A model generated the notes under the pieces. The model made no database searches. It was not told the DNA's origin and was given only the letters and a program-made list of their open reading frames with translations. 64,000 nucleotides of DNA, taken from positions 1-64,000 of the IMG/VR virus record IMGVR_UViG_3300050821_009430. One strand, 5' to 3'. Position numbers and translations under genes: made by a program. This stretch comes from a virus. This document shows positions 22,215 to 60,503 of the stretch, in pieces (the stretch's first letter is position 1; each line of letters opens with the position of its first letter).

Positions 22215-22397
22215 TTACCCCAGATCATCACCACAACACTGACAACGCATATCAGGCGAATTACCGCTGGAATACCAGATCACCCCGGCAGGGTGACCGC
22301 GTAACCGGCACCAAAGGATCTGCCACGTTTGTTCTTCACGATCCCATTCAACAGGAGCGAACAGGTAACGCCACCAGGACAGGTAAAACCAGCGCAT
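22215..22397 (-). CDS. Small Trp-rich protein with C-x4-H...CxxC; first, apparently leaderless, gene of the left-arm transcript
   Basis: WCRLRGH...CQCCG; the ATG starts 5 nt after a TATAAT. Confidence 0.55.
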   Translation of the reverse strand: MRWFYLSWWRYLFAPVEWDREEQTWQILWCRLRGHPAGVIWYSSGNSPDMRCQCCGDDLG

Positions 22398-22402
22398 GCC
22401 TG

Positions 22403-22431
22403 ATTATACGTTCGTAGGGGTAAGAATACAA
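22403..22431 (-). promoter_or_regulatory. sigma70-type promoter heading the sugar cluster
   Basis: TTGTAT-17 nt-TATAAT on the minus strand; palindrome GTTATC-N5-GATAAC immediately upstream. Confidence 0.7.
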
Positions 22432-22665
22432 TGTTATCTAAACGATAACAATTATCGAATCTTACTCAGCGATTCGTGGGGACTTGATTTTATGCACGTA
22501 TGCAGGAATACTATTACTTCTTTCGATAATCATTTTAGAATCTTGGTGCGTAATTCGACGGGAACCGGCACAGCCACACAGGGGGAGGGGGACCTCTTTT
22601 CATCTTCATCGCACATCCATGCCCCAGCCCGGTATTGTGCTCTAGAGCCATGGTGGCCGTGCGGT

Positions 22666-22755: not shown

Positions 22756-22992
22756 TTAACCCTGTTGCTGGTCGAACCGCTTTTCCATTTCCAAATCTCG
22801 CAATTCCGTTCCACTCTCGCCAATCTCGGAATAGAACACGTAATCAGCCGGTCCCTCATATTCGTCATACGCGGGGCAACCCCAAGTGCCCGGACCGTTC
22901 TCCGGATCGCCGTCGTCAAATTCAGCTTCATGTGCGGTGTACTTATACCCCAACGCCAACAGATGCTCGTGTAAAGCTAAGTTGAATGGCAT
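22756..22992 (-). CDS. Small acidic hypothetical protein
   Basis: AAGGAG RBS before MPFNLALHEH; DDGDPENGP motif. Confidence 0.6.
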   Translation of the reverse strand: MPFNLALHEHLLALGYKYTAHEAEFDDGDPENGPGTWGCPAYDEYEGPADYVFYSEIGESGTELRDLEMEKRFDQQQG

Positions 22993-23121
22993 AGCTTTGC
23001 TCCTTTGATTTGAGTTCACTCTAGACAGATAGCAGAACACAAAGCATCTTTCGAGATAATAAGCTATAAAAGATAACATACCGCCATGCAGAAATAACAT
23101 GGGTTTTATCGTTTATAGCTA

Positions 23122-23150
23122 TTGAAATTATCACGGCTTTAAAGTACTTT
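23122..23150 (+). promoter_or_regulatory. sigma70-type promoter
   Basis: TTGAAA-17 nt-TACTTT upstream of the 23251 gene. Confidence 0.55.
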
Positions 23151-23250
23151 CGTTTTGTTAGCTGGCGCACACATACCCGTTACAAGCGCCCTTGAAACCC
23201 TCACAGTGGCAGCCCTGACAAGCTGCGGTAACGGGCAGAAGGAAGAAGCT

Positions 23251-34014: not shown

Positions 34015-34581
34015 ATGATAGACCTTGCAGCAATTCCCGCTGAACGTCTTGCTATGTTGGACAACGCAAAGCTTTACAACGGTTCGCATGACGGCGGGAC
34101 TGGTGGCCCAGATTGCAAGCATTGTGCCCGTGAATTGCTCTATGAGGTTGTTACTGGTAATCATGCAGATAAAGTGCCGCCCGGATGTTCGGTCATGATT
34201 GGCGTTCTGCCAACATTCAATGATGGCCCTTGGCTCAACGACGATCATCGCACGGAGGTGATGCGTCCCTACCTCAAGAAAATGCTAACCCTTGATCCAG
34301 CAAGGGATGCTGAACGAGTTTTCTATCTGCTCGATCACGTCTACCGAGCCGACCTCCCAACCATCTGCGACCTGTTTAAGGAGGATGAGGCTGCAAAAAA
34401 GTTGCGCGGGTTGGCACCAATCACCAATAACAAATCTGCGCTGCGTGCGCTGGATGCGATGCGTGCGCTGGGTGCGCTGCGTGCGCTGCGTGCGCTGGAT
34501 GCGCTGGGTAAAAAGCAAATCGCCGAAGCGTGGGCCAAGAACTGTACCGACGCCCTCGATCTTATCTGCTCTATTGAATGA
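34015..34581 (+). CDS. Hypothetical protein with an (AL-R/D/G)n tract
   Basis: AAGGAG RBS; GSH...C..E...D.P.C...FND motif. Confidence 0.65.
   Translation: MIDLAAIPAERLAMLDNAKLYNGSHDGGTGGPDCKHCARELLYEVVTGNHADKVPPGCSVMIGVLPTFNDGPWLNDDHRTEVMRPYLKKMLTLDPARDAERVFYLLDHVYRADLPTICDLFKEDEAAKKLRGLAPITNNKSALRALDAMRALGALRALRALDALGKKQIAEAWAKNCTDALDLICSIE
34438..34509 (+). repeat. Eight tandem 9-nt repeats (consensus GCGCTGSRT)
   Basis: gcgctgcgt gcgctggat gcgatgcgt gcgctgggt gcgctgcgt gcgctgcgt gcgctggat gcgctgggt. Confidence 0.9.
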
Positions 34582-41148: not shown

Positions 41149-41664
41149 ATGATACCTTCCTTAATCAAACCAGCTACCAGAAATACCCCGTGGCCTGAAG
41201 AACAAACAGAAAAACTGAGGAACCTTGTACTTGATCCCAATATGACTGCTTCAAAGATAGCAATAGAGCTGGGCGATGGCCTTACGCGGCATGCGGTCAT
41301 AGGCAAAATTCACAGATTAGGCTTACAAAATAATATATGGGGAAAGGGGCAAAAAAACGGAAGGCCAAGAAAGACAAATCACAGGGGGCAATCTGCGCAA
41401 AGCAAACAGACGGCCCTTTATTTCACCAAGCGAAAACGCTTAAGAGTGCTTTTAGTTGAGCCGGCATCCTCACAATTTCCAAATGTTGAGCCTTCCGCCT
41501 TTGATAATGCAATCCCACAAGAACAACGCAAAACACTTATGCAGTTGAACGGTCACACTTGCCGGTGGCCTGTTGGTTACCCAGGCGAACCAAATTTTTT
41601 CTTTTGTGGGGCATTAACTGATACCACCTATTGTGATTATCACACTACCCGATCAATTAGATAA
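41149..41664 (+). CDS. gcrA: GcrA-family cell-cycle regulator
   Basis: W..E..EKL...TASKIA.ELG..LTRHAVIGKIHRLGL N-domain; L..L....CRWPVG.P....FFFCG......YC..H C-domain. Confidence 0.9.
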   Translation: MIPSLIKPATRNTPWPEEQTEKLRNLVLDPNMTASKIAIELGDGLTRHAVIGKIHRLGLQNNIWGKGQKNGRPRKTNHRGQSAQSKQTALYFTKRKRLRVLLVEPASSQFPNVEPSAFDNAIPQEQRKTLMQLNGHTCRWPVGYPGEPNFFFCGALTDTTYCDYHTTRSIR

Positions 41665-51009: not shown

Positions 51010-51552
51010 ATGCGGCATGAGCGCATAGCAACAGTGTGGGAGCCAGAGTGGGAAGGGGCAATCAAAAATTGGGCAACTTCCTTTATCAAAAAACAACAAT
51101 GGCGCTGCGATAAAATTTACGAATTTGAGGACCTTCTACAAGAAGCCTACGTTCTTTTTCTAAAGCTGGCAGCGCGTTACCCCAGAGTAGTTGAACCGGC
51201 CCATTTCATGGCCTTGTTCAAAACATCACTGAGTAATTTCATCCATGACAAATCAATTTACCTCCAACGAAAAAAAGAATGTCATGTCGACGTTGGAGTT
51301 GATATATCGGACTTTTGTATTAGTCATATCGGTGAGACTACCAATGCCGGGCTGACCATGCTCTTGCTTAACGAAGCACCGCAAGAACTGCGTTTGGCAT
51401 TGGCGTTAGTAACCGATGATCCAGCCTCTTTGGGGGCACCTATTAACCCCAGAAAACCCCGTGAGAACTTGAATATGAAGTTGAGACGTATTCTTGGTCT
51501 TGAGAACACTTTTGATTTCAAAGCAGCACTTATCGATCTGCTACTCAACTAA
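51010..51552 (+). CDS. Sigma-factor-like protein (sigma70 region-2-like)
   Basis: EFEDLLQEAYVLFLK....Y......F..LF...L.N resembles region 2; region 4 is not clear. Confidence 0.55.
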   Translation: MRHERIATVWEPEWEGAIKNWATSFIKKQQWRCDKIYEFEDLLQEAYVLFLKLAARYPRVVEPAHFMALFKTSLSNFIHDKSIYLQRKKECHVDVGVDISDFCISHIGETTNAGLTMLLLNEAPQELRLALALVTDDPASLGAPINPRKPRENLNMKLRRILGLENTFDFKAALIDLLLN

Positions 51553-52188: not shown

Positions 52189-52442
52189 ACCGGAATCCAA
52201 AGGAGCTTGCCAAACGAATATTGGAAATAGAAGCCGTTTATTCCAATGACATCCAATTCAGCTTAACTAATCTTGGGTTACGGCTAACATTTGGCGAAAC
52301 ATCGCTCATTCAGGATGAGCCACCAACTCATCGAATCGCGGTGTTCATCCCAGCCCCTATTATTGAACCGTTCATGACTGGGCTTAAAAACGTCATGGAA
52401 CAACACGCTCAGAATAATGCTCCGCCAGAAAAAACCAACTGA
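52185..52442 (+). CDS. DUF3467-like small protein
   Basis: VYSN.......L.LTFG.......V.IP motif. Confidence 0.55.
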   Translation: MNRNPKELAKRILEIEAVYSNDIQFSLTNLGLRLTFGETSLIQDEPPTHRIAVFIPAPIIEPFMTGLKNVMEQHAQNNAPPEKTN

Positions 52443-53353
52443 TGCTCTACCGTACCAAAAGTGGTACCAGGACGCTTTACCGTAGCCGCCCGCTATTGCT
52501 TACCCCGCAGCAAGCCTACACACGCCCCAGCCCCGGCAAAGCATGGTTTGCCACTACAACCAGCGTGTGGCGTGTTGATGAAATCATTAAGCGAAGTGTA
52601 CGTGACTGGCGCAGGCTGACTGGGGAAACTGGCCACACTGGCGAACGTGCTGAAACGATGCGAGCCGATCATGAGAGTGTGTATACCGGCACGCACAGCG
52701 TATTCGCTGCCCCATTGGTAGAATGGATTTTACTTCGATACGGCGGCGAACCGGGTGGGCATATACTTGATGCCTTTGCCGGTGGCCCACCACGGGCGTT
52801 AGTTTCAACCATTATGGGCTATCGGTATACTGGGTTTGAGATACGCCAGTCACAAATTGATGAAAATAAGAACACATTGAAGCAATTGGGCCTTACCGAG
52901 TGCAACTATATCCTTGCAGATGGCCGGTATCTTGCCGATGATATTGGTCCTTTCGATGTTGCACTAACATGCCCGCCTTATTACGATCTCGAAGTTTACA
53001 GTGATCTTGAGAATGATCTCAGTAATTTGGCTACCTATGGGCAGTTCAATTTTGGGATGTACTCTTGTGCATTAGCTCACGCCAAGGTGATGAAGCCTGG
53101 GGCTTTTGTTTGTATTGTTGTTGGAAATTTCAGAGATAAAAAAGGTGAATTAGTAGATTTCAGAGCACACACTGTTGAGAATTTCCAAGAAGTTGGATTT
53201 GTGTTTTGGCAAGATGTGATCTTGGTTAAAAACACTGGGAGTGCCACGATCAGATCCACTAACGCATGGCGTGGGAAAAAACTCGTCCCGATACATGAAC
53301 ATTTACTTGTCTTCAGACAACCAGAAAACAAAAAGGTTGAAGCAGATGAATAG
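52442..53353 (+). CDS. DNA amino-methyltransferase (N6-A or N4-C)
   Basis: SVF.APL.E, ILDAFAGG (motif I), GFEIR, TCPPYYDLEVYS (motif IV), HE.LLVF. Confidence 0.85.
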   Translation: MLYRTKSGTRTLYRSRPLLLTPQQAYTRPSPGKAWFATTTSVWRVDEIIKRSVRDWRRLTGETGHTGERAETMRADHESVYTGTHSVFAAPLVEWILLRYGGEPGGHILDAFAGGPPRALVSTIMGYRYTGFEIRQSQIDENKNTLKQLGLTECNYILADGRYLADDIGPFDVALTCPPYYDLEVYSDLENDLSNLATYGQFNFGMYSCALAHAKVMKPGAFVCIVVGNFRDKKGELVDFRAHTVENFQEVGFVFWQDVILVKNTGSATIRSTNAWRGKKLVPIHEHLLVFRQPENKKVEADE

Positions 53354-54389
53354 AGCTGAATTAACAGCAAAGCTGGAACTGGTCAGCTATGCCTTGGCCG
53401 ATCATAATTTGGTCCCTCTATTTCAGTGTTTCTGCTTTGATACAAAAACTGTCAATTGCTATAACGATACACTCGGGGTTATTGCCCCCTGTGAGATTAA
53501 TGATGCTTTTGCGGTCAATGGCACCACCTTGCTTGGGCTACTGAAAAACAGCCACAGTGAAGAAGTTGAGTTTTCAATCGAGGACAAACACGATATTGTC
53601 ATAAAAACCGGCAAGAGCCGTTTCAAATTGCCTTACTTTCCTAAGGAAGATTTCCTCTTCAAAAAGCCAGCCAACAAGTGGACTATCACACTGACTATAG
53701 ACGAAAACTTATTGAAGGGCTTGGAAGCCTGCCTATTGACTTCATCGCGTGATATGGCTCAACCAAAATTGCTTGGCGTTAGCCTTGGATCCTATTCTAA
53801 AAAGGTAGCTTTGTATTCCTGTGATGGGGACGCACTCACTCGTCATCTTACAAATACCAAAGCCGTAGAAAATTTATCTTATTTGATGCCCAATATGTTC
53901 TGCGAAGCCTTGGTTCGTATTTGCAAGGAATCCAAGATCGATGCCGGGCAACTGAATATTAATTCTGAATGGACCCACGCAGAACTAGATAACGGTTATC
54001 AAATCTACGGCCGTTTGATTGAAGTTGATGCCCCAGTAGATTACGAACAATTGATCACCAAAACCGTCAAAGGTGAGGTTAGCTTCCTGCCGTTGCCAAA
54101 AGGGTTGGATCATGCCCTATCACGCGCCCGCGTGATTGCTGATCCTGACAGTGCCAAAACCGTATTTGAGATAACAAGTGAGAAGCTTCGTCTAATAACC
54201 GAAACCCACATGGGCATTGTCAGAGATGTGATGCCTTACCCTAAACATGAGGATATTAGCGCCAATGCTTCGGCCGCCATGGTGCAACGGGCTATTGGGC
54301 TTTGTGACGAAATGGCCATTCTTGAACGCTGCACGGTATATAGACAGGGCACTACCCTGTTCATGGTTGTGAGCAATATGGGTGAATAA
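53346..54389 (+). CDS. DNA polymerase sliding clamp (beta/DnaN-like)
   Basis: About 347 aa, three-domain pattern, MNRAEL...L, IKTGKSRFKLP, SCDG, GRLIE...DY; replication context. Confidence 0.7.
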   Translation: MNRAELTAKLELVSYALADHNLVPLFQCFCFDTKTVNCYNDTLGVIAPCEINDAFAVNGTTLLGLLKNSHSEEVEFSIEDKHDIVIKTGKSRFKLPYFPKEDFLFKKPANKWTITLTIDENLLKGLEACLLTSSRDMAQPKLLGVSLGSYSKKVALYSCDGDALTRHLTNTKAVENLSYLMPNMFCEALVRICKESKIDAGQLNINSEWTHAELDNGYQIYGRLIEVDAPVDYEQLITKTVKGEVSFLPLPKGLDHALSRARVIADPDSAKTVFEITSEKLRLITETHMGIVRDVMPYPKHEDISANASAAMVQRAIGLCDEMAILERCTVYRQGTTLFMVVSNMGE

Positions 54390-54822
54390 AATGGATAGTG
54401 AAATAGAGCGATTACGGACCCGCGTTGCAGAATTGGAATTTCATATTTCTGAGATGGTGAAAGAATTACAACGAGTTGCTGAATCTTGGCCCCTGCGGCT
54501 TCCCCCAACATATGCATTGGTTTTAAGCGTTTTTCTTAAGCACCCAAAAATGGTTTTGACCAAAGAATTCTTATGGCGAAATATTTACGCTGCCCGTATT
54601 GGCCACGAAGATGAATGGCCTGATCCAAAAATTATTGATGTTTTTATCTGTAAACTTCGGCCAATCATTAAACGCTATGATATCTATATAGAAACAATTT
54701 GGGGTAGGGGCTGGCGTATAGATGAAGTCAACCACACCAAATTAGTGGCATTGAGTAACGTGCCATTCGGCACGTCACCTGAAGCCTTTACTCAAGCTAA
54801 TGCAGCAGGATGCGCTCAATAG
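54382..54822 (+). CDS. CtrA-like OmpR-type DNA-binding domain with an N-terminal coiled coil and no receiver domain
   Basis: LTKE.L...IY....DEWPDPKIIDVFICKLR......IETIWGRGW closely matches the CtrA C-terminal pattern (EPELKIIDVFICKLRKKL...IETVWGRGY). Confidence 0.8.
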   Translation: MNKMDSEIERLRTRVAELEFHISEMVKELQRVAESWPLRLPPTYALVLSVFLKHPKMVLTKEFLWRNIYAARIGHEDEWPDPKIIDVFICKLRPIIKRYDIYIETIWGRGWRIDEVNHTKLVALSNVPFGTSPEAFTQANAAGCAQ

Positions 54823-55100
54823 ATCAAATCATAGCTGCCGTAGAAGCAGCCGCCCGTGTCCCTCAAGGCTCAACCCGCGATACATCATGCCGGGTCTATG
54901 AGATCAGCCTTGCACGTCATATTGCCTGTTACATTGCCAGAAAAGAAACACATCTATCGTTCAAAAGAATAGCCACAGCTTTTGGCACCGACGATCATAA
55001 GATTGGCCTTTATGCCTTCAATAAAATTTCGATAGCCCTGCTTAATAGGGACCCTCATGTAATTCGAGTAGTGAATGAAGCTTCAAGCCCGGTGGCTTGA
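54810..55100 (+). CDS. Stand-alone DnaA domain IV-like HTH protein
   Basis: IDQII..V...ARHIACYIARKETHLSF..IA..FG.DDH.....A..KI matches the DnaA C-terminal pattern. Confidence 0.75.
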   Translation: MRSIDQIIAAVEAAARVPQGSTRDTSCRVYEISLARHIACYIARKETHLSFKRIATAFGTDDHKIGLYAFNKISIALLNRDPHVIRVVNEASSPVA

Positions 55101-55102
55101 AG

Positions 55103-57808
55103 ATGTCATTCTTTTTTACCAAAAGTACCCCCCGTGCCAAAGCCACGGAGGCGGTCACTGGTAAGGGTTTTTTAGCGGGCACCCTACCTACCACAATAAG
55201 GCGGAATCCTGCCGTATGGGCACGTCTAGGCTGTGCTGGCTGTCCCCTCAATAAAGCTTCTGGCATAGTCACGCCGTTGATGGAACCAACCCTAAGCAAA
55301 GGGGGGCAAATCTATTTCCTTGCGGAAGCACCGGGGCGTGATGAAGATGAGAACACAGGCAGGCCTCTTACCGGGCCGTCAGGTTCATTATTGCGCGAAT
55401 GTATTCCTGAGGATTGGCAAGATGAATGTTCGTTTGATAATATAATAAACTGCCGACCGCCGGGCAATAGAACACCACAATGGCAAGAAATTGAATGTTG
55501 CCGCCCAAGACGTACGAAATACATAGAACAGGCAAAGCCCAAGCTGATTGTGGGATTAGGCGCGGTACCGTTACAGGCTATCCTTGGTTCATCTGATTTG
55601 CAGGGAATGCGTGGCAGGCTCTTTGCCGTTAAATTTGGTGAACATCATTGCTGGTTCCTCCCTACTTATCATCCATCATTTATTCTGAGAATAGCCAAGA
55701 ACAAAAGGAAGCCACTCAATTCAATGATGGGCCATTGTTTCAGGATGGACATCAGAAAAGCATTTGAACTGGTGGCCGATCTTGAATTGCCCCACATTGA
55801 TACTGAGGCAGAGATTAGATCAGGAATACAATGTTTTGACGGTTCCAAACAAAGCCACCATCAAGCTATTATTGATCTTTTATATGAAGCCCGTAAGGCA
55901 CCCCTCAAAGCGGTAGATATAGAAACCAAAGGGCTACGCCCGTACAAAACCGACGCAGCCATCATGACCTGTGCCCTCAGTTTTGAGGATACCAATTTTG
56001 CATTTGCCTTGGATCATCCACATTCTAAATGGCCCGCGCACATTAAAGAGAAAATACGAATATTGCTTGAAAGCATTCTAAAGGATGACACTGTAAAGAT
56101 AGCTCACAATGTCCCATTCGAACTCGAATGGTTTATCTGGTATTTTGGCAAACACATAATCAATCACCATGCGTGGCACTGCACGCAGATGCAGGCTCAT
56201 TTTCTCGATGAGCGTCGTGGCAAGTCACGAAGTTCAGATGAAAACGACCGCCGCGCCGCCTATCAGGCATTAGATTTCCTCTGCAAACAACATTTTGGCT
56301 TCACCTACAAATCGCTGTTCAAGCTAAATAAGAAGGATATGTCCAAATCTGATCTTGGCGAAACGTTACTCTATAATGGCGTCGATACCAAAATAACGCT
56401 GCGGTTACATCATTGGCAGATCAGACTGCTGAAGAAGTTTGGCCTCTATAAAGCCTACCTTGAGGCACGCCCACGCCAAACCTCAGTAGCCATGATGCAA
56501 TACCTCGGCGTTAATGTGGATCAGGCCGAGGTTAAGAAAGCCCAAAAGAAGCTTGGCCCTCAGATCAAAGTATTAGAGGCCAATATTGCCGAATTGAAAG
56601 TGGTGAAAGCCTTTGTACAGGATCACAAAGAGTTCAATCCACTCTCAAACGATCATGCTATCACAATTTTCAAGGATTACCTGAAAAGGCCCGAAGTTCA
56701 GATCAAACAGGAACGTCACGAAGCACATAATTTCAACAAATCATCCGATAGCAAAAAGCGTTTCGATAAAGGGCCTGAAATACGATACTCAGTTGATAAA
56801 GGTGTTCTTGCGCAGATTGACCACCCCCTAGCTGGAAAAATTATTGACCTCCGCAACCGCACCAAACTGAAAAGCACCTATGTAGATTGCCTAGAACTTG
56901 GCAAAGGAGAAATGATTTACCCGGATGGAGCAATTCATTGTAATTTCAATACAACTTTTGCAGAAACCGGACGCACAAGTTCCGATGATCCAAATATGCA
57001 GAATTATCCTCAACGCACTGATGCGTGGGTGCGCAATCAAATAGCTGCTAAGGATGGGCATCTTTTGCTGGCCTTTGACTACGGCCAATTGGAAGCCTGC
57101 ACAGCCGCGATGTGTTCCCAGGACAAAGTGTTGGTAAAAGCACTGTGGGAGGATTACGATATTCATATGGAATGGGCAATCAAAACAGCCCACCAGTACC
57201 CGGCCATTATAGGGGGCAAGAAGTGCATCCAAGATAAAGACGTAATGAAGAAGTTTAGGTCAAAGATAAAGAACAAATTAGTCTTTCCGGCAATATTTGG
57301 GGCACAGAATTCATCTATTGCTGGCTACCTTGATATGCCAGTTGAGGAAATTGATGTTTTGATGCGTGAATTTTGGAAAACGTTCTATGGCCTTGCTGAA
57401 TGGCAAGATAAATTGATGAAGAAATATTATGAAGATGGTTATGCTGAAAGTCCTACCGGACGTAGGCGTCACTACCCTATGACCCGCAATCAGGCAATTA
57501 ACGATCCAATTCAAAGCGTGGCATGCGATATAGTTTGTCGTTCAATGAATGATCTTTCAGAGTTAGCGACGGTTGAGAAAAAATGGTACTTACATCCAAT
57601 TTTGAACATTCATGATGATCTCTCATTTCAGGTACAAAACAACGATAGAATTATTGAAAAAGCCATTAAAGATATATATAGAATTATGCTAACTCCAAAC
57701 TATGACTTCATTAATGTACCGTTATCAGTTACTTGTTCTATAGGAAAGCACTGGTTTGGCATGGAAGAAATTGGAAAGTTTTGGTCTCACAAAGACATTA
57801 AGAAATAA
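55103..57808 (+). CDS. Family-4 uracil-DNA glycosylase domain fused to a 3'-5' exonuclease and family A DNA polymerase
   Basis: CAGCPL, AEAPG.DED..GRP..GPSG, NCRPPGNR, PTYHPS; Exo DIET, HNVPFE, YNGVD; Pol TGRTSS.DPNMQN, DYGQLE, R...K...F....G, IHDD. Confidence 0.92.
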   Translation: MSFFFTKSTPRAKATEAVTGKGFLAGTLPTTIRRNPAVWARLGCAGCPLNKASGIVTPLMEPTLSKGGQIYFLAEAPGRDEDENTGRPLTGPSGSLLRECIPEDWQDECSFDNIINCRPPGNRTPQWQEIECCRPRRTKYIEQAKPKLIVGLGAVPLQAILGSSDLQGMRGRLFAVKFGEHHCWFLPTYHPSFILRIAKNKRKPLNSMMGHCFRMDIRKAFELVADLELPHIDTEAEIRSGIQCFDGSKQSHHQAIIDLLYEARKAPLKAVDIETKGLRPYKTDAAIMTCALSFEDTNFAFALDHPHSKWPAHIKEKIRILLESILKDDTVKIAHNVPFELEWFIWYFGKHIINHHAWHCTQMQAHFLDERRGKSRSSDENDRRAAYQALDFLCKQHFGFTYKSLFKLNKKDMSKSDLGETLLYNGVDTKITLRLHHWQIRLLKKFGLYKAYLEARPRQTSVAMMQYLGVNVDQAEVKKAQKKLGPQIKVLEANIAELKVVKAFVQDHKEFNPLSNDHAITIFKDYLKRPEVQIKQERHEAHNFNKSSDSKKRFDKGPEIRYSVDKGVLAQIDHPLAGKIIDLRNRTKLKSTYVDCLELGKGEMIYPDGAIHCNFNTTFAETGRTSSDDPNMQNYPQRTDAWVRNQIAAKDGHLLLAFDYGQLEACTAAMCSQDKVLVKALWEDYDIHMEWAIKTAHQYPAIIGGKKCIQDKDVMKKFRSKIKNKLVFPAIFGAQNSSIAGYLDMPVEEIDVLMREFWKTFYGLAEWQDKLMKKYYEDGYAESPTGRRRHYPMTRNQAINDPIQSVACDIVCRSMNDLSELATVEKKWYLHPILNIHDDLSFQVQNNDRIIEKAIKDIYRIMLTPNYDFINVPLSVTCSIGKHWFGMEEIGKFWSHKDIKK

Positions 57809-57871: not shown

Positions 57872-58822
57872 ATGACCAGTCTTCATACAAAGTATAGGCC
57901 AACTATCTTCGACGAAGTGGTAGGCCAAGATCATGTGGTCAAGGGCCTCAAGCGCGTAGTCAAAGACAGCCGTGCCAAAACTTTCTTGTTCACGGGGCCA
58001 TCAGGGACCGGAAAGACCACTCTTGCTAGAATATTAGCAAATTCCTTCGCCAAAAACGAAGCTACGGCAGCCAATATAGAAGAAATAGCTGCCGCCGATA
58101 CTACCGGCGTAGATGCCATGCGCGAAGTAATCAAACACACGTTGTACCGGGCTATTGGCACTTCACCAATCAAAGCTGTCATTTTGGACGAAGCACATCG
58201 TTTGTCAGGCGCGGCATGGGACGTCCTCCTTAAGCCAGTCGAGGAACCACCCACTCACGTTTACTGGATGATCTGTTCTACTAATCCGGGCAAAATACCG
58301 AAAACAATACTGACCCGATGCCTACGCTACGATCTGAAACCTGTTTCTGAGGAAGACCTGCTTGAGCTATTACTGCGCGTAGCTGAGGCTGAGAAACTTG
58401 AAACACCAGATGCAATATTGGAAGCCATTGTTGAGGAAGCTTCAGGCTCACCACGTCAGGCTTTAGTATTTTTGGAGGCCTGTTCCTATGCCGAAACAGC
58501 CGGTGAGGCGCGTATTGTTATGCGTAGCGCCGGGCAGTCTAAAGAAGTAAGTGACCTGTGCAAATTCTTGCTTGGGCAACGTGGCCGTACCTGGGCCGAA
58601 GCCATGAAATATGTAAAGGCACTTGAGGGAACCGATACTGAAAGCATCAGGATAATAATTGTAAATTATCTAAGTGCCGTTTTGACAAATACCAAAAGCA
58701 ACGATAAGGCTATTCCGCTTCTTGGGCTACTGGAATGTTTTTCTGCCCCCTATCAACCAATAGATAAACTTGCGCCACTCCTGCACTCGATAGGCATGGC
58801 ACTCAACCTGGATAAAGCATGA
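57872..58822 (+). CDS. Clamp loader AAA+ subunit (DnaX gamma/tau-like)
   Basis: KYRP..FDEVVGQ, GPSGTGKTT, LDEAH, LLK.VEEPP, TILTRC, GSPR.A. Confidence 0.9.
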   Translation: MTSLHTKYRPTIFDEVVGQDHVVKGLKRVVKDSRAKTFLFTGPSGTGKTTLARILANSFAKNEATAANIEEIAAADTTGVDAMREVIKHTLYRAIGTSPIKAVILDEAHRLSGAAWDVLLKPVEEPPTHVYWMICSTNPGKIPKTILTRCLRYDLKPVSEEDLLELLLRVAEAEKLETPDAILEAIVEEASGSPRQALVFLEACSYAETAGEARIVMRSAGQSKEVSDLCKFLLGQRGRTWAEAMKYVKALEGTDTESIRIIIVNYLSAVLTNTKSNDKAIPLLGLLECFSAPYQPIDKLAPLLHSIGMALNLDKA

Positions 58823-59307: not shown

Positions 59308-59461
59308 TGCCTTGTGGCAGTACATTTTACCGATTGCTGTCATAGCATTGATCCTTTGGCTCACATGCAAAGCAATTATTGGGTCCTACTTTAAAGCAAA
59401 GGACGGTTTCGTTAATCGGCTAGTTGACAAACTCAAAGGAGCCAACAGTGGCGAAAAGTGA
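59300..59461 (+). CDS. Small single-TM protein
   Basis: GTG start with GGAG RBS; ILPIAVIALILWL segment. Confidence 0.5.
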   Translation: MSDALWQYILPIAVIALILWLTCKAIIGSYFKAKDGFVNRLVDKLKGANSGEK

Positions 59462-60503
59462 GAGTAAAAGATCGTTTCATTACGAACACCGTTCCAAGGA
59501 GGACGTAAAAGCCCGCGCCAATATGCGGGGCGGTGGCTATGACAGCTTTGTAAAGCCCGAATTCAAGCGCTACAAGGTGCGCGACGGAAAAAACTTGGTG
59601 CGCATCCTGCCAGCAACATGGGAAAAGCCCAAGCATTACGGTTACGATATTTGGGTGAATTACGGCATTGGTGCAGATAACCAATCGTACCTTTCTCTTT
59701 CAAAAATGAACGACGAAGCCGATCCGTTGGCCGAAGCCCGCAAGCAGGCTCAACGCGAAGGGGATGACGAAACCGCCAAGGCATTATCACCGCGCCAGCG
59801 GGTACTGGTTTGGGTCATTGATCGTAATGAAGAGGATGAAGGCCCACAACTGTGGGATATTCCTTTCAGTGTTGACAAGGATTTTATCAACCTCTGCCTT
59901 GATGAAGACACCAAGGAGGTCATCTATCCTGATGATCCTGATAATGGACATGATCTTCGGTTTTACAAGGAAGGCTCAGGGCTTGGCACCAAATACCCGG
60001 CGTCTCGCATGAAGCTTCTTGATGAATCGCCGCTTCATGAAGATCAAGGCACTCAGGATGAATGGCTTGAATTTGTGAAGGAAAACCCGGTGCCTGACTG
60101 CCTGCAATTCTACAGTGCCGATCAGATTGCCTCGGCCTTTGACGGGCAGGTTCGTACCAAAGATGACAATGACGAAAAGCCACGCAAAAAATTGCGTGAT
60201 GAAGATGACGAAGGTACAAAACCAAAGCGCCGTCCTGTTGCCGATGAGGATGATGACTCTGAAGAGAAACCAAAACGTCGGGCCACCAAAGATGACGATG
60301 AAGATGAACCGGATGAAAAACCACGTCGTGCCCGTACTCAACTGAAGGACGAGGATGAGCCGGACGAGGCGGATGAAAAACCGCGCAAAAAGGCAAAGCC
60401 TGCCAGAGATGAAGATGAAGAACAAGACGAAAAGCCACGCCAAAGTATCCGTGAACGGTTAGCTGCACGCCGTTCTAAAAGCACCGATGAGGATGACGAC
60501 TGA
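59448..60503 (+). CDS. ssDNA-binding protein (gp32-like) with a long acidic/basic tail
   Basis: G.N.VRILP, VIDR..E..GPQ.W, DP..G.D....K.G.G..T.Y; tail of DDEDE/KPRK repeats. Confidence 0.75.
   Translation: MAKSESKRSFHYEHRSKEDVKARANMRGGGYDSFVKPEFKRYKVRDGKNLVRILPATWEKPKHYGYDIWVNYGIGADNQSYLSLSKMNDEADPLAEARKQAQREGDDETAKALSPRQRVLVWVIDRNEEDEGPQLWDIPFSVDKDFINLCLDEDTKEVIYPDDPDNGHDLRFYKEGSGLGTKYPASRMKLLDESPLHEDQGTQDEWLEFVKENPVPDCLQFYSADQIASAFDGQVRTKDDNDEKPRKKLRDEDDEGTKPKRRPVADEDDDSEEKPKRRATKDDDEDEPDEKPRRARTQLKDEDEPDEADEKPRKKAKPARDEDEEQDEKPRQSIRERLAARRSKSTDEDDD

Follow-up and report, generated by a model that had tools for sequence, protein, structure and literature searches.

A receiver-less CtrA-type winged-helix protein and a stand-alone DnaA domain IV encoded in the replisome operon of a soil virus

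What do two small DNA-binding proteins, one recalling CtrA and the other DnaA, do between the sliding clamp and the polymerase of a virus? The locus lies in a soil virus record of 78 kb (84% complete), of which the stretch analysed here, the window, is 64 kb. A sequence-only reading had placed two small overlapping open reading frames, ORF1 and ORF2, between the clamp and polymerase genes, and the ORF calls, together with profile matches of the flanking genes, bear this out. The features discussed below are as follows:

53346..54389, + strand: β sliding-clamp gene (phrog_947, 8.3e-27; PF00712, 5.9e-6)
54391..54822, + strand: ORF1, a receiver-less protein with a presumed zipper and a CtrA-type winged helix (PF00486, 3.4e-9; NF045991, 37.2 bits; tree; AF2 model)
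54388..54483, + strand: long N-terminal helix of ORF1 (residues 3–34) with a heptad repeat, the presumed zipper (AF2 model; family conservation)
54628..54717, + strand: recognition helix K83–I96 and β-hairpin wing 104–112 of ORF1, carrying K83, I84, F88, C90, K91, W107 and R109 (column statistics)
54810..54822, + strand: overlap of ORF1 and ORF2, 13 nt (read from the sequence)
54810..55100, + strand: ORF2, a stand-alone DnaA domain IV (PF08299, 2e-12, full profile)
54984..55013, + strand: diverged DnaA signature GTDDHKIGLY of ORF2, residues 59–68 (comparison with 50 viral relatives)
55103..57808, + strand: UDG–exonuclease–PolA fusion (PF00476, 1.5e-54; PF03167, 3e-18; PF01612, 8.4e-10)
57872..58822, + strand: clamp-loader subunit, same operon (phrog_5846, 8.8e-74; PF13177, 3.9e-18)
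41149..41664, + strand: GcrA homologue (PF07750, 3.7e-28)

With the last of these, the phage has a third regulator of the alphaproteobacterial cell cycle. The clamp gene stops one base before ATG 54391, which is the likelier start of ORF1 because it lines up with the start of the homologue in a sister phage (L005). Read from this ATG to its end at 54822, ORF1 encodes 143 amino acids; from GTG 54382, from which its residues are numbered here, it encodes 146. The overlap with ORF2 (96 amino acids) could permit translational coupling, and the likely ATG of the UDG–exonuclease–PolA gene lies 3 nt past the ORF2 stop. A scan of 49–64 kb for promoters and terminators gave signals at chance level only. 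The replication proteins encoded by the phage itself include a DnaB-like helicase, a clamp, a clamp loader and PolA, and the host is probably an alphaproteobacterium. No blastn match to the ORF1–ORF2 region was found among cultured phages, and the sequencing runs containing this DNA comprise one DNA run, a soil metagenome that may be the sample of origin, with no RNA run listed.

ORF1 matches Pfam Trans_reg_C (PF00486) over residues 38–112 (3.4e-9, 37.1 bits; cut-off 26.2). Its AF2 model (pLDDT 92.9) shows a winged-helix fold of three helices followed by a C-terminal β-hairpin, for which the best Foldseek matches were the DNA-binding domains of PhoB, ArlR and NsrR (rmsd 1.9–2.5 Å over 76–78 columns). 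The four-stranded β-sheet that begins OmpR/PhoB effector domains is absent from the model, in which residues 3–34 form a helix and the first strand starts no earlier than residue 59. ORF1 gave no match to the receiver profile PF00072, residues 1–34 being a single helix, and two extra helices are modelled at its C terminus. The earlier description of ORF1 as only the DNA-binding part of CtrA needs correcting: besides the winged helix there are the zipper helix and the two C-terminal helices. Hydrophobic residues recur along the N-terminal helix at positions 8, 11, 15, 18, 22, 25 and 29, a spacing of 3–4, and these seven positions are 70–98% LIVMF across 40 family members, with Asn second commonest at position 8. 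This conserved heptad helix agrees with the proposal of a coiled coil able to dimerise without a receiver; dimerisation itself is predicted, and the heptad pattern suggests that the zipper most likely gives a constitutive dimer.

To which branch of the OmpR family does this winged helix belong? The best NCBIfam model for ORF1 is that of CtrA (NF045991), with 37.2 bits over model positions 164–221 only, against a cut-off of 350, and the same model is the best for 39 of 40 members of the phage family to which ORF1 belongs. In PDPKIIDVFICKLR, which extends into the first part of the recognition helix, ORF1 has the same 14 residues as a bona fide CtrA (P0004, which scores 407.8 bits where NF045991 asks for 350). 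Phylogeny had been proposed as a check on whether the domain falls among non-CtrA OmpR regulators. In our tree, a quick search over 99 columns with a viral set retrieved by CtrA-like peptide patterns, ORF1 groups with CtrA: a branch with SH-aLRT 99 sets CtrA, the phage family and ORF1 apart from 26 other OmpR domains, paralogues drawn from five alphaproteobacterial genomes. Column statistics point the same way. K83, I84, C90, K91 and W107, all present in ORF1, occur in 100% of 26 CtrA sequences and 84–95% of 134 family members, compared with 0–12% of the 26 other paralogues; seven signature columns in all are common to CtrA and the phage family while reaching at most 15% in the other paralogues, and five of these lie in the recognition helix or wing. 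With the 14-residue identity and the CtrA-specific helix and wing residues kept, the CtrA recognition motif is intact in ORF1, as the sequence-only reading had it. ORF1 T60 aligns with CtrA T170, on which promoter choice critically depends (10.1101/739516).

The phage family of ORF1 comprises 1323 representative matches, the best 150 of which are almost all 110–160 amino acids long and aligned from about residue 5; 221 copies in IMG/VR were confirmed by tblastn. ORF1 matches phrog_731 over residues 6–114 (6.4e-5), belongs to phrog_31800, which is labelled 'transcriptional regulator', and has the family architecture, a heptad helix directly before the winged helix in a length class of about 110–160 amino acids. 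Elsewhere the family's gene neighbours are ParB-like, MT-A70 and GcrA genes, with DUF6551 the commonest (8 of 89 neighbour proteins), and 79 of 80 other loci show no linkage to replisome genes. A search of this genome for PF20188 (DUF6551) gave no match, and the control genomes gave none either. In the sister-phage homologue both the recognition helix (GSVDVFICKIR) and the wing (ISTVYKIGY) have diverged. No publication on CtrA-type domains encoded by phages came up in our literature search; phages that carry CtrA boxes in the genome have been shown to exploit the CtrA of the host (PMC9437464).

ORF2 spans the complete Pfam Bac_DnaA_C profile (PF08299, positions 1–69 of 69; 2e-12, 47.4 bits, cut-off 31.5). 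Its model, built with DnaA sequences in the alignment, superposes on DnaA domain IV of E. coli (1J1V; TM 0.84, rmsd 1.4 Å) and M. tuberculosis (3PVP; TM 0.83), with rmsd 1.4–1.5 Å overall, and a separate ESM Atlas model gave TM 0.83–0.87 to DnaA clusters. Against the model for DnaA proper (TIGR00362), ORF2 scores 36.6 bits (cut-off 343.9) over the C-terminal 80 model positions only, without the AAA+ domain III. Residues 61–66 read DDHKIG in place of RDHTTV. This altered signature, already noticed from the letters, proved a true outlier against 50 viral relatives with RDHTTV-like motifs: these have R or K at position 61 (48 of 50), T or S at 64 (49 of 50) and at 65 (50 of 50), and H at 68 (45 of 50), where ORF2 has D, K, I and Y, respectively. 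ORF2 is without equivalents of T435, T436 and R432, and binding to a canonical DnaA box is therefore doubtful; judged by these substitutions, it probably binds a non-canonical site.

Bac_DnaA_C was the sole domain in 49 of 51 scanned members of a viral DnaA-IV-only class. This class is recurrent in viruses and itself uncharacterised in phages, and ORF2 is, as far as its residues predict, a natural specificity variant of it. GafA and GafY are small DnaA-IV-like transcription activators of gene transfer agents (PMC9638019, PMC11150451). The MucR / DnaA_C / DUF6456 locus was confirmed in a Devosia genome; in the 78-kb record (84% complete), PF20057, representing the GafZ-type DUF6456 partner, gave no match at E ≤ 1. 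Recent derivation of ORF2 from either alphaproteobacterial DnaA or GafY was rejected because its similarity to both is equally low (the Devosia GafY-type protein scores 13.6 bits, and DnaA from three alphaproteobacterial genomes 13.8–16.1 bits). A candidate cultured-phage relative, from three tblastn matches, was also set aside: the one inspected falls within an ORF of DnaA length (447 aa), behind which comes an ORF of 376 aa, and is probably bacterial contamination. A word-based protein search with ORF2 found only ORF2 itself, and a profile search with its alignment was dominated by truncated alphaproteobacterial DnaA fragments, and so uninformative on ORF2's own kin.

Do the two genes form a unit? 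The sister phage has clamp, winged-helix and PolA genes in the same order, its clamp being 66% identical (in an alignment that begins at Met36 of the listed ORF) and its polymerase 73% identical to those described here, and it has no ORF2. PF08299 found no match in the sister-phage record, and in the DNA alignment ORF2 corresponds to an indel of about 285 nt. Among 136 other viral loci, the partner gene was present in none of 80 winged-helix loci and none of 56 DnaA-IV loci; related-locus searches with the clamp alone and with ORF2 alone found nothing. The idea of a functionally coupled pair finds no support in this comparison. The pairing is an accident of one indel and not a module, and among the loci examined it is seen in this phage only. 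Recognizing it as the product of a single indel guards against over-reading the juxtaposition.

We searched the phage for candidate binding sites of either protein. TTAA-N7-TTAA occurs neither in the 64 kb nor in the full 78 kb (1.1 expected), TTAA itself is depleted (175 versus 233 ± 16 expected), and pairs of TTAA at spacings of 0–20 nt are all at chance in the phage genome. DnaA boxes with one mismatch show no excess (11 versus 13.4 expected), TTAACCAT does not occur in the phage genome, and neither iteron-like arrays nor a repeated operator-like motif was found in the phage. Beyond this phage, 763 kb flanking family genes at 80 viral loci held 1 canonical CtrA box against 0.7 expected, with no enrichment. 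The lack of CtrA boxes and of a DnaA-box excess argues against canonical phage-borne sites, without showing a host-origin target.

Given that the phage holds no TTAA-N7-TTAA and no excess of DnaA boxes, we read the two proteins as independent binders. We tentatively favour, stopping somewhat short of calling it probable, a model in which ORF1 and ORF2 are two independent small regulators co-transcribed with replisome genes, ORF1 standing in for CtrA without need of phosphorylation and probably acting on host DNA, ORF2 being a protein of changed specificity. Phosphorylation and proteolysis ordinarily control how active CtrA is. In ORF1, a zipper-like helix would replace the receiver and the N-terminal β-sheet of a CtrA-type effector domain and would hold the protein as a constitutive dimer. 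Because the CtrA-specific helix and wing residues are kept, this dimer should read CtrA-type (TTAA) half-sites, and would do so without the CckA–ChpT phosphorelay; because no canonical CtrA box is present in the phage genome, CtrA-controlled sites on the host chromosome would be its likeliest targets. ORF2 would be a lineage-specific gene insertion, working either as a GafY-like accessory regulator or as a competitor. Counting against this model, the diverged helix and wing of the sister-phage homologue are better explained by phage-specific sites that drift than by one fixed box in the host.

That divergence also speaks for phage-directed transcription factors, whereby ORF1, ORF2 or both would bind phage operators or promoters and time middle or late genes, with neither acting on host CtrA or DnaA sites. 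The 'transcriptional regulator' label of phrog_31800, the precedent of GafY and GafA as DnaA-IV-like activators of phage-derived clusters, and the unique ORF2 signature, as expected of a private site, are consistent with such a role, and two AT-rich stretches between genes (22.38–22.56 kb and 23.03–23.15 kb) hold clustered TTATC/GATAA motifs and an inverted repeat. We nevertheless consider it unlikely, since the operator-like repeats or iteron arrays that would serve such factors were not found, CtrA boxes are not enriched near family genes, and CtrA-specific residues held at 84–95% across a very diverse phage family are hard to square with private sites.

In Caulobacter the origin is silenced by CtrA~P, which overlaps DnaA boxes, and the two proteins might act as the origin blocker suggested by the sequence-only reading, with ORF1 on the CtrA sites and ORF2 on the DnaA boxes of the host origin, stopping host initiation as the phage copies its DNA with its own machinery. 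The intact reading residues of ORF1, the position of both genes within the replisome operon and the phage's own helicase, clamp, clamp loader and PolA would all suit this role. We regard it as very unlikely, however, because ORF2 lacks the T435, T436 and R432 equivalents kept by 48–50 of the 50 viral relatives and is missing from the sister phage, the pair is missing from the 136 other loci, and the winged-helix family elsewhere adjoins ParB-like, MT-A70 and GcrA genes and not replisome genes. DnaA domain IV derives from an origin-binding module, and one or both proteins could instead mark the phage origin, recruiting the clamp and polymerase encoded around them; the clamp–winged helix–PolA order kept in the sister phage fits this picture. 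Yet both proteins lack an ATPase or helicase-loading domain, no iterons or DnaA-box excess were found, and the family is unlinked to replisome genes in all but 1 of 80 other loci, making a role at the phage origin highly improbable.

If the favoured model is true, the zipper-dimerized CtrA reading surface of ORF1 would bypass control by phosphorylation and proteolysis, a simple way in which the alphaproteobacterial cell cycle could be rewired by phages. A bolder proposal, which we rate as quite unlikely, is that alphaproteobacterial phages repeatedly assemble kits of stripped-down host cell-cycle DNA binders (here a constitutive zipper-CtrA, a re-targeted DnaA-IV, GcrA and a methyltransferase), with the CtrA and DnaA modules acting jointly on the host origin or cell-cycle promoters and freezing the host cycle to favour phage replication.

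Set against known systems, ORF1 shares with CtrA the OmpR-type winged helix, the identity over PDPKIIDVFICKLR and IETIWGRG in the wing, but has no receiver, phospho-Asp or N-terminal effector-domain β-sheet; it carries instead the heptad helix and two C-terminal helices, and its α1 and α2 have diverged. It also resembles the phrog_731 / phrog_31800 family, found in alphaproteobacterial phages and sometimes near GcrA, with members in Roseobacter phage RDJL3, Paracoccus phage vB_PmaS-R3 and Rhodobacter RcSalem-like phages whose annotations read 'CzcR-like response regulator' or 'HTH DNA binding protein'. Architecture, length class, heptad positions and recognition motifs are alike, whereas ORF1 has a β-clamp gene upstream in place of the usual ParB-like (DUF6551) gene and a DnaA-IV gene downstream, and its Pro94 shortens the K-K-L end of the family's recognition helix.

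ORF2 keeps the equivalents of E. coli DnaA R399 (R28), the minor-groove Arg, and of R407, D433/H434 (D62/H63) and K443 (K72), but it is without domains I–III and differs by R432D, T435K, T436I and V437G, as well as by N for R442 and Y for H439. Like ORF2, the viral DnaA-IV-only proteins (IMG/VR; ESM Atlas clusters of 92–102 aa with PF08299) sit on viral contigs, where GcrA is the commonest recognizable neighbour; unlike it, most of them run to about 160–230 aa when ORFs are called from the first start, have an N-terminal part without assignment, and show the canonical RDHTTV. Although the MucR/sufE synteny of GafY and GafA is missing around ORF2, GafY and the N-terminal part of GafA offer a parallel as small stand-alone DnaA-IV-like DNA binders in alphaproteobacterial phage-like elements, and the signatures of GafY (RDRTTV in the Devosia protein) and ORF2 both depart from that of DnaA.

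The IMG/VR virus record (78,457 bp, an estimated ~84% complete), whose first 64 kb form the window, occurs in a sole sequencing run, a soil metagenome. From around 49.6 kb to the window end, the long ORFs are all on the plus strand and tightly packed, and ORF1 and ORF2 lie between the beta-clamp and the polymerase:

Genes around ORF1 and ORF2
52442-53353, plus strand, DNA methyltransferase
53346-54389, plus strand, beta-clamp, upstream of ORF1
54391-54822, plus strand, ORF1, zipper and CtrA-type winged helix
54810-55100, plus strand, ORF2, stand-alone DnaA domain IV
55103-57808, plus strand, UDG-exonuclease-PolA fusion (the polymerase), downstream of ORF2
57872-58822, plus strand, clamp loader

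ORF1 could start at GTG 54382 (from which we number its residues) or at ATG 54391, one base past the clamp stop; the ATG is the likelier start because the closest homologue uses the same one. The ORF2 ATG (54810) is 13 nt upstream of the ORF1 stop, and the ORF2 stop is 3 nt upstream of the polymerase ATG. Given this tight packing, and because a promoter and terminator consensus scan gave no signal above chance, the four genes from clamp to polymerase look co-transcribed. Elsewhere in the window, inspection by eye suggests an ECF-sigma-like region-2 motif in a 180-aa ORF (51010-51552) that the sister phage keeps; Pfam gives no match for this ORF, and its sole PHROG match is phrog_35491, of unknown function. 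A 9-nt tandem repeat (TGCGCTGCG, 7.8 copies; 34437-34509) within ORF 34015-34581 would encode a short peptide repeat, and GATGA(A/C)GA-rich repeated units (59826-60500) within ORF 59424-60503, which has no Pfam match, would give an acidic repeat protein rich in Asp and Glu.

The sequence-only reading had treated ORF1 and ORF2 as a coupled pair, which comparison with other phages does not support. L005, a 76-kb viral contig, is a clear sister (clamp 66% identical, polymerase 73%, winged helix 46-48%) with the order clamp, winged helix, polymerase. In a DNA alignment of L005 with the window, a clean ~285-nt indel coincides exactly with ORF2, and the whole L005 record has no match to PF08299 (Bac_DnaA_C). 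ORF2 relatives were found within 5 kb of winged-helix genes at 0 of 80 viral loci, and ORF1 relatives within 4 kb of DnaA-IV genes at 0 of 56. The two genes are thus not a unit. Among 89 immediate neighbour proteins of the winged helix elsewhere, the recognisable ones include the ParB-like DUF6551 (8), further Trans_reg_C proteins (6), MT-A70 methyltransferases (5), GcrA (2) and GapR (1); a GcrA homologue lies within ~4-5 kb of a zipper-CtrA gene at 9 of the 80 loci (L005-L084). GcrA is also the commonest recognisable neighbour of DnaA-IV-only genes (5 of 78 proteins; 4-5 of 56 loci, L203-L258), and the window phage has its own GcrA gene at 41149-41664. What recurs in alphaproteobacterial phages is the pared-down cell-cycle DNA binder, rather than the ORF1-ORF2 pair. 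As a separate observation on the sister, I-S-F-F-F-T-K at L005:5425-5445 aligns with the polymerase N terminus M-S-F-F-F-T-K at window 55103, and the aligned codon, ATC preceded by GGGGG, suggests a non-canonical start.

ORF1 matches Pfam Trans_reg_C over residues 38-112 (3.4e-9). Its AlphaFold model (mean pLDDT 92.9, from a 40-sequence alignment) has a long helix (3-34), helices at 42-53, 61-72 and 84-97, a hairpin (104-112) and two more helices. In Foldseek, the core superposes at ~2 Å on the effector domains of PhoB, ArlR and NsrR, but ORF1 lacks both the N-terminal beta-sheet and the receiver domain of such regulators. Residues 8, 11, 15, 18, 22, 25 and 29 of the long helix follow a 3-4 spacing; these heptad positions are 70-98% LIVMF among 40 family members, with Asn second in frequency at position 8, and the intervening positions are mostly charged. 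This pattern is the sequence signature of a dimeric coiled coil, through which ORF1 would be expected to dimerise. An exhaustive HMMER search (E <= 1e-3) yielded 1,323 representative proteins; among the best 150, lengths are almost always 110-160 aa and alignments begin around residue 5, so zipper plus winged helix is the family architecture. An IMG/VR pattern scan gave 221 tblastn-confirmed copies, and cultured relatives occur in phages of Rhodobacter, Roseobacter, Paracoccus and Rhizobium, where their annotation goes no further than HTH or 'CzcR-like'.

Several comparisons place ORF1 with CtrA. Its best NCBIfam model is the CtrA equivalog (37.2 bits; next model 25.7), which matches 39 of 40 family members and whose 350-bit cut-off the bona fide CtrA P0004 passes with 407.8 bits. 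ORF1 and P0004 share PDPKIIDVFICKLR and IETIWGRG, and a genome scan with the family motif returned 80 loci, almost all alphaproteobacterial, 79 of them encoding CtrA-like regulators of full length, receiver domain included. We built a tree of ORF1, 26 CtrA, 33 short viral proteins, four CtrA-like viral proteins of full length and 26 further OmpR-family domains drawn from five genomes of Alphaproteobacteria. In this quick search over 99 columns, with viral rows retrieved by CtrA-like patterns, a branch with SH-aLRT 99 separated the other OmpR paralogues from all remaining rows, and ORF1 was sister to the L005 protein (support 95); the CtrA affinity proposed from sequence is thus supported, and ORF1 does not fall among non-CtrA OmpR regulators. 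Column statistics on 134 family members from an unbiased search agree: K83, I84, C90 and K91 in the recognition helix and W107 in the wing, all carried by ORF1, are present in 100% of CtrA, 84-95% of the family and 0-12% of other paralogues. Helices alpha1 and alpha2 have diverged from CtrA. T60 corresponds to CtrA T170, which governs promoter-class choice, and V58 to T168, whose equivalent is Val in rickettsial CtrA (10.1101/739516). Four viral contigs (L027, L052, L054 and L078) encode CtrA-like proteins with a receiver domain that branch with or beside bona fide CtrA; they may represent full-length CtrA carried by phages, or host sequence at the edge of a provirus.

ORF2 covers the entire 69-position Bac_DnaA_C profile (2e-12), and its match to the DnaA equivalog is confined to the last 80 model positions. 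Its model (pLDDT 90.2, input alignment including DnaA sequences) can be superposed on the DnaA-box complex of E. coli domain IV (1J1V; TM 0.84, rmsd 1.4 Å) and on the M. tuberculosis domain; an independent ESM Atlas model gives TM 0.83-0.87 to DnaA clusters, and the nearest Atlas feature clusters are 92-102-aa viral proteins with PF08299 only. From the alignment, we take R28, R36, D62/H63 and K72 to be equivalent to E. coli R399, R407, D433/H434 and K443, and presume changes at D61 (R432), K64 (T435), I65 (T436), G66 (V437) and N71 (R442). Contact residues were compared with DnaA of five alphaproteobacterial genomes, using residue roles quoted in PMC9638019. An IMG/VR scan found 56 viral relatives, and Bac_DnaA_C stands alone in 49 of 51 scanned sequences (ORF2 included). 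Three signature positions keep R/K, T/S and T/S in 48-50 of 50 viral relatives and are D, K and I in ORF2, a comparison unbiased by retrieval because the retrieval pattern sat in a different helix. ORF2 is thus a genuine domain IV whose reading head has changed in a unique way, which bears out the altered signature noticed from sequence alone. An ORF2-like match in L202 (OR846603.1, 'Enterococcus phage Efs 1-1-1', UNVERIFIED_ORG) lies within an ORF of 447 aa that precedes one of 376 aa; this pair resembles bacterial dnaA-dnaN in size and order, and the record is probably bacterial DNA rather than phage.

We tentatively favour two independent regulators: ORF1 would be a constitutive zipper dimer acting as a CtrA surrogate or competitor that does not need the phosphorelay, and ORF2 would bind DNA as a monomeric domain IV of new specificity. 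The conserved reading residues are our basis for supposing that ORF1 reads CtrA-type sites. TTAA-N7-TTAA is absent from the 64 kb (1.1 expected) and from the full 78 kb, TTAACCAT is absent from the phage, its TTAA pair spacings show no enrichment, and canonical CtrA boxes are not enriched in 763 kb around family genes of other phages. If ORF1 does read such sites, they more likely lie on host DNA; the converse, box clusters in phage genomes acted on by host CtrA, has been published (PMC9437464). TTAA itself is depleted in the full record (175 observed versus 233 ± 16 in second-order Markov simulations), for which avoidance of restriction or of CtrA-type half-sites is a possible cause. The recognition helix and wing of the L005 protein have drifted, which counts against a fixed host target. 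We consider a host-origin blocker, one of the options raised by the sequence-only reading, quite improbable.

Purely phage-directed transcription factors, which we regard as unlikely, would have possible sites in two AT-rich non-coding stretches (22380-22560 and 23030-23160) flanking the minus-strand ORF 22756-23100. These carry ~4 TTATC/GATAA motifs per 100 bp (genome mean ~0.27) and inverted repeats (GTTATC-N5-GATAAC and a 15-nt pair at 23062/23106); they are candidate phage-borne sites, nothing more, and possibly an early regulatory region. A role as phage origin factors would suit the position beside the polymerase, but DnaA boxes occur in the phage at chance frequency and no iteron arrays were found there; we give this reading very little weight.

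For ORF2, the closest functional precedent is GafY/GafA-N: these small DNA-binding proteins resemble DnaA and switch on gene-transfer-agent promoters by contacting sigma-70 or RNAP (PMC9638019, PMC11150451). The published MucR / DnaA_C / DUF6456 arrangement is indeed present in a Devosia genome; no DUF6456 (GafZ-type) partner was found in the window phage, and ORF2 is no closer to the Devosia GafY-type protein than to DnaA. Both domain families are already known, and both domain-only phage classes are present, uncharacterised, in databases; searches of the literature for phage-encoded proteins of CtrA type, or with DnaA domain IV alone, found no paper on either. What is new is that a zipper-CtrA member lies inside a replisome operon, lacks the ParB-like gene that usually accompanies it, and adjoins a DnaA domain IV whose signature has diverged.
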